A program made the position numbers and the translations under genes. The notes beneath the pieces are model-generated. The model ran no database searches. It saw nothing but the letters and a program-made list of their open reading frames with translations, and was not told the DNA's origin. A stretch of DNA of 951 bases from Escherichia coli (GTDB taxonomy: Bacteria; Pseudomonadota; Gammaproteobacteria; Enterobacterales; Enterobacteriaceae). The stretch is from NCBI RefSeq assembly GCF_003334785.1, contig NZ_QOWV01000069.1. The stretch is one strand, 5' to 3'. This document shows positions 1-951 of the stretch, piece after piece. How positions within the stretch are numbered: the first letter of the stretch is position 1; each line of letters starts with the position of its first letter.

Positions 1-237
1 CCCCTGCAGCGGGTCATAATAGCGGTGGCGGTTGTAATACAGGCCGGACTCCTCATCATACTGCTGCCCCGGCAGGCGGATAAGCTGCTGCAGCTGATGC
101 GGGTTCTCTTCATTCAGCAGGTTGCCCCATTCATCGTATTCTGCGCACCATTCTGTTGCCCCTTCCGTGCTGATAAGCGCCAGCGGCAGGCCGCGATGGT
201 CGCAGTGGTACAGGTGGATTTTTCGCGCCGGCGTGTA
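1..237 (-). other. N-terminal portion of the RHS repeat-associated core domain (TIGR03696-like), truncated by the window edge before the DPxGL motif
   Basis: Residues ~239-317 of the in-window translation ([79 protein letters not shown]) match, from memory, the pattern of this domain: a YD-type repeat, then 'xRxPGQYYDEETGLYYNxxRYYDPxxGR', then DPxGL. The domain start is approximate and the assignment rests on recalled motif knowledge, not a computed HMM score. Confidence 0.7.
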
Positions 238-951
238 CACCGGGTCCATCTGGTTTTGCATCTGCTCCACGGTCAGGCCGCACGATGCCAGCCAGCGGCG
301 GCTTTCCTCACTCACCCGGTCAGCCAGGATTTCACTTTCCAGCCGGTCGAGCATCTGCACCAGCACCGGCGGGAACACCACACTGCCACCGTCTTCGCCG
401 CCGGACTGCTGAAGGGTATCCGCCAGGCTGCGGCGCTGCGTTTTCGCCAGCTCACCGGTGGCGGTTTCAACCCTGATGAGTGGCGTGAAGCTCCCCGGCT
501 GATAAATCGTCTGGATGCGGGTTCTGTCGTTCTGTATCGTGGTCAGGCGGTCGCCGTCCCAGCCGTACCAGGTCACTTGCGGTTTCCGTGACAGCGACAT
601 CCAGCCCGTCAGGTCCCGTTCACGTCGCCACACCCGTTTTGCCACCCTGCGGCCCAGCGGGTCGTAAAGATAGCGGCTTTCGACCAGCGGCTCTGCATAT
701 TGTGTCCGCGTGTAGTGCACCAGCCGGTGCTGACTGTCGTAATGGTACCGGTGGGTGCGCTCATCATCCGTGCGGATAACCCCTTCCGGGATGAGGTCGG
801 TTTTCTCTGTCAGCCTGCCGTGACGGTCATACCGGTAAAGATAGTGCGCGTCACGGGCGATACGGTTATCCGGCCACATGCTGAGGGTGCTGTCCGGGTG
901 CAGCTCCGGGTCGGGCAGGCGGTTACCTGCCGGGTCTGTGGCATACGGGAT
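1..951 (-). CDS. rhs: Rhs family YD-repeat core protein, internal/3'-proximal fragment (partial at both ends; no start or stop codon in window)
   Basis: Reverse-complement frame in register with + position 1 is open for 317 codons; I checked it block by block and found no stop. Translation (N to C, + 951 down to 1): [317 protein letters not shown]. It contains multiple YD-repeat signatures (xYxYDxxGRL-like) and the characteristic '[21 protein letters not shown]' segment that precedes the DPxGL motif in Rhs core proteins. G+C is about 62% by hand count, as expected for enterobacterial Rhs cores. The paralog (rhsA/B/C/D-type) cannot be assigned from this fragment. Confidence 0.93.

Follow-up and report, generated by a model that had tools for sequence, protein, structure and literature searches.

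What does a stretch of Escherichia coli DNA encode when a single reading frame crosses it from edge to edge, and what sets the two points at which it begins and ends? The stretch analysed here, which we call the window, is 951 nucleotides long, and our answer, which we hold to be very probable, is that it is a segment of an RhsC-type core and at the same time the repeat of the rhsC locus, that this repeat supplies the homology for exchange of Rhs tips, and that the window is likely a collapsed-repeat contig. Rhs cores and their paralogy are already established, as are orphan modules and recombination across core stubs; the window illustrates this knowledge and does not extend it, and the judgement of an earlier sequence-only reading, that this is well-described biology rather than novel, is one we share. 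The main value of the analysis is the correct reading of the window as one known protein-coding repeat.

Coding Frame and Protein Family

Frame 0 of the minus strand runs from window base 951 to base 1 as 317 codons with 0 stops when the reverse complement is translated, and the remaining minus-strand frames contain 7 and 17 stops. In 20,000 mononucleotide (composition-matched) shuffles the mean was 9.4 stops per frame, and any of the six frames was fully open in 0.085% of them; the stop-free frame from edge to edge that the sequence-only reading had described is thus well founded. Compared with K-12 rhsD, the window shows 209 nucleotide differences, of which 41, 34 and 134 lie at first, second and third codon positions; identity is 81% for amino acids and 78% for DNA, there are no frame-breaking gaps, and the comparison with rhsE gives a codon-position pattern like that of rhsD. 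Substitutions are spread over the minus frame as expected of genuine coding sequence. The GC content of the window is 62% (GC3 76%); the K-12 core has approximately 61–62% GC, against 37–40% for the tips and immunity genes.

The plus strand is almost open as well: its frame 0 has one stop in 317 codons and an open stretch of 196 codons, and this single stop across the whole length could be taken for the mark of a real antisense gene, a reading to which we give practically no credit. Plus frame 0 is the exact mirror of the minus coding frame, and among the minus-frame codons TCA at codon 121 is the sole one whose reverse complement is a stop; the mirror frame is nearly stop-free because TTA, CTA and TCA are rare in a GC-rich Rhs gene. 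In addition, the substitutions pile up at the third codon positions of the minus frame, where the plus frame has its first positions, and every family match belongs to the minus-strand product. The plus-strand gene was therefore rejected, its open stretch being no more than the coding frame in mirror image. Since the whole window is one known coding repeat, the smaller “features” found in it, such as the plus frame, hairpins and motifs, are by-products of Rhs core coding. A terminator-like hairpin on the plus strand (positions 88–102) was set aside as being within chance (1 found, shuffle mean 0.5), and an Rfam scan of the window for structured RNA gave two chance-level matches, far under the gathering scores. 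Chi sites were considered as the explanation of a “rearrangement hot spot” and rejected, as none is present on either strand of the window.

The translation matches the NCBIfam model RHS_core (NF041261) from end to end (model positions 913–1229 of 1261, E = 8.6e-207) with 689.7 bits, a score to be read per residue (here 2.2 bits), since the whole-protein cutoff of 2000 bits is unreachable for a fragment that makes up a quarter of the model. The window (1–951, minus strand) is the C-terminal quarter of an RhsC-type core and corresponds to amino acids 899–1215 of the 1397-residue K-12 RhsC. Its family identity was observed directly: the window is an Rhs core of RhsC type, edge to edge on the minus strand, as the sequence-only reading had proposed for Rhs cores in general. 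The recurring YD-repeat motifs mentioned there are also present, with three motifs following the pattern YxYDxxGR[LIV], namely YRYDRHGRL (aa 39, plus coordinates 811–837), YHYDSQHRL (aa 69, 721–747) and YLYDPLGRR (aa 94, 646–672), all encoded on the minus strand; the same scan of 2000 shuffled proteins gave a mean of 0.011 hits. Of the Pfam and TIGRFAM models to which that reading had pointed, TIGR01643 (YD_repeat) scored 29.1 bits against a cutoff of 15.8, PF03527 (“RHS protein”) matched aa 245–281 (positions 109–219, minus strand, E = 5e-15), and the Pfam RHS_repeat model gave weak matches (E = 0.066 and 0.89).

The claim that the translation contains the terminal signature of the Rhs core holds in part. 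Besides PF03527, TIGR03696 (Rhs_assc_core) matched above its cutoff at aa 272–316 (positions 4–138, minus strand), yet only with model positions 1–42 of 76, and the autoproteolysis motif lies beyond the window. The core-end motif itself (DPxG-x18-DPxG, QDPIGL...PxxxxDPxGL) is absent from the window; in related loci it starts 6 codons past the coding 3′ end of the window, which stops 32 RHS_core model positions short of the end of the core. The motif is missing because of the window limits, and this is not evidence against membership of the Rhs family.

The solved Rhs effectors Tse5, Salmonella bongori Rhs, Photorhabdus Rhs1 and Tse15 align with E values of 1e-24 to 1e-12 in two blocks, at aa ~17–165 (shell) and aa ~238–316 (C-terminal domain). 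The YD-repeat (beta-shell) part covers aa 24–165 (positions 457–882, minus strand) and aligns to residues 863–984 of the Tse5 shell (8cp6). Between the last shell repeats and PF03527 there is a non-YD segment of approximately 70 residues, GELAKTQRR...QMQNQMDP (aa 166–237, positions 241–456, minus strand), for which no aligned counterpart was found in the solved Rhs structures, where Tse5 skips from residue 984 to 1012 and S. bongori Rhs from 1313 to 1316. The identity of this segment to RhsD is 68%, against 82–86% elsewhere in the window.

Copies in Other Genomes

Of 5426 complete E. coli genomes searched with megablast, 3888 gave matches to the window, the median number of matching places in a genome being 5. 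The high conservation between paralogs asserted in the sequence-only reading is seen for K-12 rhsA, rhsB and rhsC (98.2–98.6% identity), while rhsD and rhsE reach about 78%. The best matches (99.8–99.9%) were not with any of these genes, but with an N-terminally truncated pseudogene between ybfB and ybfC, directly downstream of rhsC. In a K-12-like genome this orphan fragment differs from the window at 2 positions, and rhsC, rhsA and rhsB differ at 17, 13 and 14, respectively, so that relative to K-12 the alleles in the window are of the orphan type. PGAP annotates the K-12 orphan as “RHS repeat-associated core domain-containing protein”, incomplete, with the N-terminus missing, and as a pseudogene; this truncated core fragment is known as ybfO/rhsO. 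The description of the window as coding sequence therefore stands as far as the open core frame is concerned, with the reservation that the nearest K-12 copy is a 5′-truncated orphan annotated as a pseudogene.

No copy identical over 951/951 positions was found in the 5426 complete E. coli genomes. The nearest relatives, ESY002 and strain 164, have 1 mismatch each to the window, and in both of them the main and the orphan copies are equally close. A 133-nt allele pattern of the window (681C together with 778A) was found in 0 contigs among the GTDB representative genomes and in 6 metagenome contigs, none of which bears a copy identical to the window.

Repeat Structure of the rhsC Locus

In K-12 the order of the rhsC locus is rhsC, ybfB, the truncated core fragment, ybfC and ISAs1, the ISAs1 elements being the classical H-rpt. 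A 951-bp direct repeat occurs here once inside full-length rhsC and once at the head of the orphan core fragment that lies between ybfB and ybfC, with 1871 bp from the start of the one to the start of the other, and the window (1–951) corresponds to one copy of it. The geometry of this repeat was read directly from the genomes. Homology between the orphan and the rhsC core begins exactly at the first coding base of the window (window base 951; position 9001 of L002), and in related loci the orphan core homology starts abruptly after a 45-nt AT-rich spacer that follows ybfB, with neither an N-terminus nor a start codon. At the other end, window base 1 comes immediately before coding position 952, where main and orphan have a fixed difference. 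In ESY002 and in strain 164, main and orphan agree fully (100%) from coding position 1 to 951 and no further, with 0 bases in common upstream of the repeat and the first difference at position 952. The spacing of 1871 bp and the difference at position 952 are present in 9/9 two-copy genomes examined, a small sample mostly drawn from the top matches. Base for base in its extent, the window coincides with the direct repeat that the main gene and the orphan share at rhsC.

Similarity between the two copies is graded, with 0, 0, 4, 11, 11, 14, 16, 17 and 19 main/orphan differences within positions 1–951 in the nine genomes. The differences fall in contiguous blocks, confined to 774–793 in TSW4848-W1, to 686–828 in strain 32-4, and to 276–327 and 686–828 in 2024CK-00535. 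Clustered in this way, they look like gene-conversion tracts, such as patchy conversion would leave. The orphan copies align gapless to the 951-bp window in 9/9 cases (1–12 mismatches), and no internal stop interrupts the translation of the K-12 orphan. The junction of ybfB to the orphan was found in 2659 genomes of the complete E. coli collection, and in related loci the orphan module continues past the core-end motif with a distinct tip and then ybfC.

Several further observations were made at these loci. In the K-12-like orphan (L002, ~10020–10050) the core-end motif reads PVQYIDSMGL, with DS replacing the usual DP, and the full-length rhsC has PISNIDPLGL. The orphan stub at the K-12 rhsA locus (L003, 12158–12541) covers coding positions 567–951 of the window with 95% identity, and the one at the rhsD locus (L005, 9987–10136) covers 802–951 with 83% identity. 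Since the lengths of the K-12 stubs differ between the rhsA, rhsD and rhsC loci, displaced tips keep core pieces of variable length, the rhsC orphan being the longest. Directly 3′ of the orphan module, the ISAs1-family transposase genes ybfQ and ybfD are degenerate (11298–13703 in L001/L002 and equivalents), each genome inspected showing them truncated or interrupted by internal stops.

About half of E. coli genomes carry this sequence twice within 2 kb. A near-identical duplication at this distance makes short-read assemblies collapse or break, and consequently neither the copy (main or orphan) nor the attached tip can be assigned from the window alone.

Single-Copy Loci

Natural loci with one fused gene in place of the two copies were also observed directly. 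F1267 (L012) has a single full-length “RHS element core protein” with a main-type upstream flank and an orphan-type downstream flank, and with ybfC directly downstream of it; the rhsC tip, ybfB and a second core copy are absent. The same single-gene architecture, between ybfA and ybfC and without ybfB, is present in O157:H7 7636 (L021) and STEC435 (L022). The single-copy genes differ from the window at 2 (L012), 16 (L021) and 23 (L022) positions. Among the complete E. coli genomes, the orphan tip with ybfC was found in 3519 and the rhsC tip with ybfB in about 2540–2780, from which it follows that approximately 850–1000 genomes have the orphan tip without the ybfB module. In four inspected loci lacking ybfB (L012, L021, L022 and annotations) the tip is carried on a full-length gene. 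The fused loci fit C-terminal displacement and a crossover within the repeat equally well.

It was also seen that ybfC, presumably the immunity gene for this tip, is annotated as frameshifted in F1267 (L012, 4503–5073) and in O157:H7 7636 (L021, 5944–6514), where the Rhs with the cognate tip is intact. A frameshifted ybfC beside an intact Rhs would be odd for an active toxin/immunity pair; it could be explained by an error in sequencing, by an rhs gene that is silent or by a tip that has no activity.

Probable Origin of the Window and Proposed Mechanism

When a repeat is collapsed, a de Bruijn-graph assembler emits it as a piece that ends exactly at the ends of the maximal exact repeat. Both ends of the window, whose record comprises no more than these 951 bases, fall on repeat ends, and the window is therefore most likely a collapsed-repeat contig, produced by short-read assembly of an E. 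coli in which the 951 bases do not differ between the two copies, an origin that we infer from the boundaries. Metagenome contigs of the SPAdes type were also seen to break at the edges of the repeat with overlaps of k-mer size, L016 starting 53 nt before the repeat end and L020 stopping 33 nt into the orphan copy (L016 1–53, L020 34–104).

Two other origins have to be weighed against this one, and both appear unlikely. The window might be a piece of a single-copy, full-length and translated Rhs gene of the O157:H7/F1267 type, its match with the repeat ends being coincidental; the frame is intact and under purifying selection, and full-length genes with this region, the tip and ybfC exist in the estimated 850–1000 complete genomes given above. 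However, both ends match the repeat boundaries to the base, which is very unlikely to happen by chance for 951 bp of a 4.2-kb gene, and the genes checked have 16, 23 and 2 mismatches, against 1 in the homogenised two-copy genomes. It is similarly improbable that the window comes solely from the orphan as an untranslated, neutrally decaying pseudogene, with the open frame as a relic that has no present role. The PGAP annotation of a pseudogene without an N-terminus would agree with this, as would the orphan-type alleles of the window in K-12 and the absence of a promoter-like site from it. On the other hand, all nine sampled orphans are free of gaps and that of K-12 is free of internal stops, the orphans are 98–100% identical to the main core with tract-like sharing within a genome, and full-length genes of other strains carry the orphan tip. 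The similarity of the orphans, together with the tracts, fits ongoing conversion and not free decay. A collapsed repeat shared by the main gene and the orphan remains our preferred reading of the window.

In the context of a full-length protein, the segment would encode the final YD strands that form the Rhs shell, and the first part of the C-terminal domain. By homology to the solved Rhs effectors, this domain would close (plug) the shell and cleave off the toxin, with the catalytic DPxG-x18-DPxG and the toxin itself expected just past the window; behind this role stands what is generally known about Rhs and Tc cocoon proteins. As DNA, the repeat may supply the homology by which sequence is swapped between main gene and orphan, and it would do so while bracketing rhsC-CT, ybfB and the spacer. 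Gene conversion could then homogenise the main and orphan copies, and a crossover in the repeat would fuse the main core to the orphan tip with deletion of rhsC-CT and ybfB. In a displacement variant of the mechanism, an incoming tip/immunity cassette would push the old tip downstream together with a core stub. Recombination as the cause, and the direction of the event, are what we infer here, and it could be that the single-copy state is ancestral (C-terminal displacement) rather than the product of recombination. Rhs cores had been named in the sequence-only reading as substrates for homologous recombination, and this agrees with our results in a more specific form, since the window is a direct repeat with natural fusions and graded similarity between copies. 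To speculate, the repeat might be more than a remnant of displacement and be kept near-identical by frequent conversion as a selected toxin-switch cassette, or the orphan might be self-expressed from signals inside the segment as in Salmonella, and the 0–19 differences might then represent a tunable switching rate, but we consider such a scenario to have little chance of being correct.

Even less probable, in our estimate, is that the segment acts as an internal expression signal as well, with a promoter in the core, a short way ahead of the PxxxxDPxGL codons, driving tip and immunity in a toxin–antitoxin-like manner, as in Salmonella. There, transcription from the internal P2 promoter starts 89 nt upstream of the motif codons (PMC7043789, S2 Fig). 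The homologous position, from the −35 element through the transcription start, does fall inside the window (positions 24–59, minus strand; coding 893–928), and to that extent the idea is supported. Nevertheless, the hexamers are degraded, with ATGATG and TACAAC in the window against TTGACG and TACAAT in Salmonella (the final T of the −10 element is lost), the local identity to P2A is 63%, and a consensus scan detected no sigma-70-like promoter on either strand of the window. As the P2 hexamers are not conserved and the scan was negative, an internal promoter was rejected as a supported feature.

Comparison with Known Systems

The K-12 rhsC locus has the same repeat frame, spacing and boundaries, with 2 mismatches between the window and its orphan and 17 to rhsC; the window differs from it in carrying 144A and 778A. 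Similarity to the solved T6SS Rhs effectors (Tse5 8cp6, S. bongori Rhs 8qjb-d, Photorhabdus Rhs1 7q97 and Tse15 8uxt) is distant, although the shell and the C-terminal domain align; aa 166–237 have no counterpart there, and the window contains neither the N-terminal parts of these effectors nor their cleavage motifs or toxin. No T6SS genes were seen near rhsC in the loci inspected, where the neighbours are ybfA and kdpFAB upstream and ISAs1 downstream, and no defined delivery pathway is known for K-12-type Rhs genes.

The closest parallel is the pair STM0291 (rhs-main) and STM0292 (rhs-CT-orphan) of Salmonella Typhimurium, in which rhs and its immunity gene are likewise followed by a 5′-truncated core with an alternative tip and immunity gene (PMC3967940). 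In that system, a 522-bp main/orphan repeat with 95% identity was shown experimentally to recombine, and the product is a full-length chimeric rhs gene through which the orphan toxin is deployed (PMC3967940). In both cases the direct repeat in the core is the substrate for the chimera, at rhsC putatively so. The rhsC repeat exceeds that of Salmonella in length and often in similarity (951 bp with 98–100% identity, against 522 bp with 95%), and the two loci belong to different Rhs lineages with different tips, P2 not being conserved at rhsC.

Orphan rhs-CT/rhsI modules are a general feature of the Rhs family, and CdiA-CT orphan modules are found likewise (PMC3150448). According to the C-terminal displacement model of Jackson et al. 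2009, as it is cited in PMC3150448, an older tip with its immunity gene is pushed downstream together with a stub of the conserved core. The rhsC locus is alike in kind to this model and to the CdiA-CT orphans and can be regarded as a textbook instance, with the tip of its orphan carried on full-length genes elsewhere.
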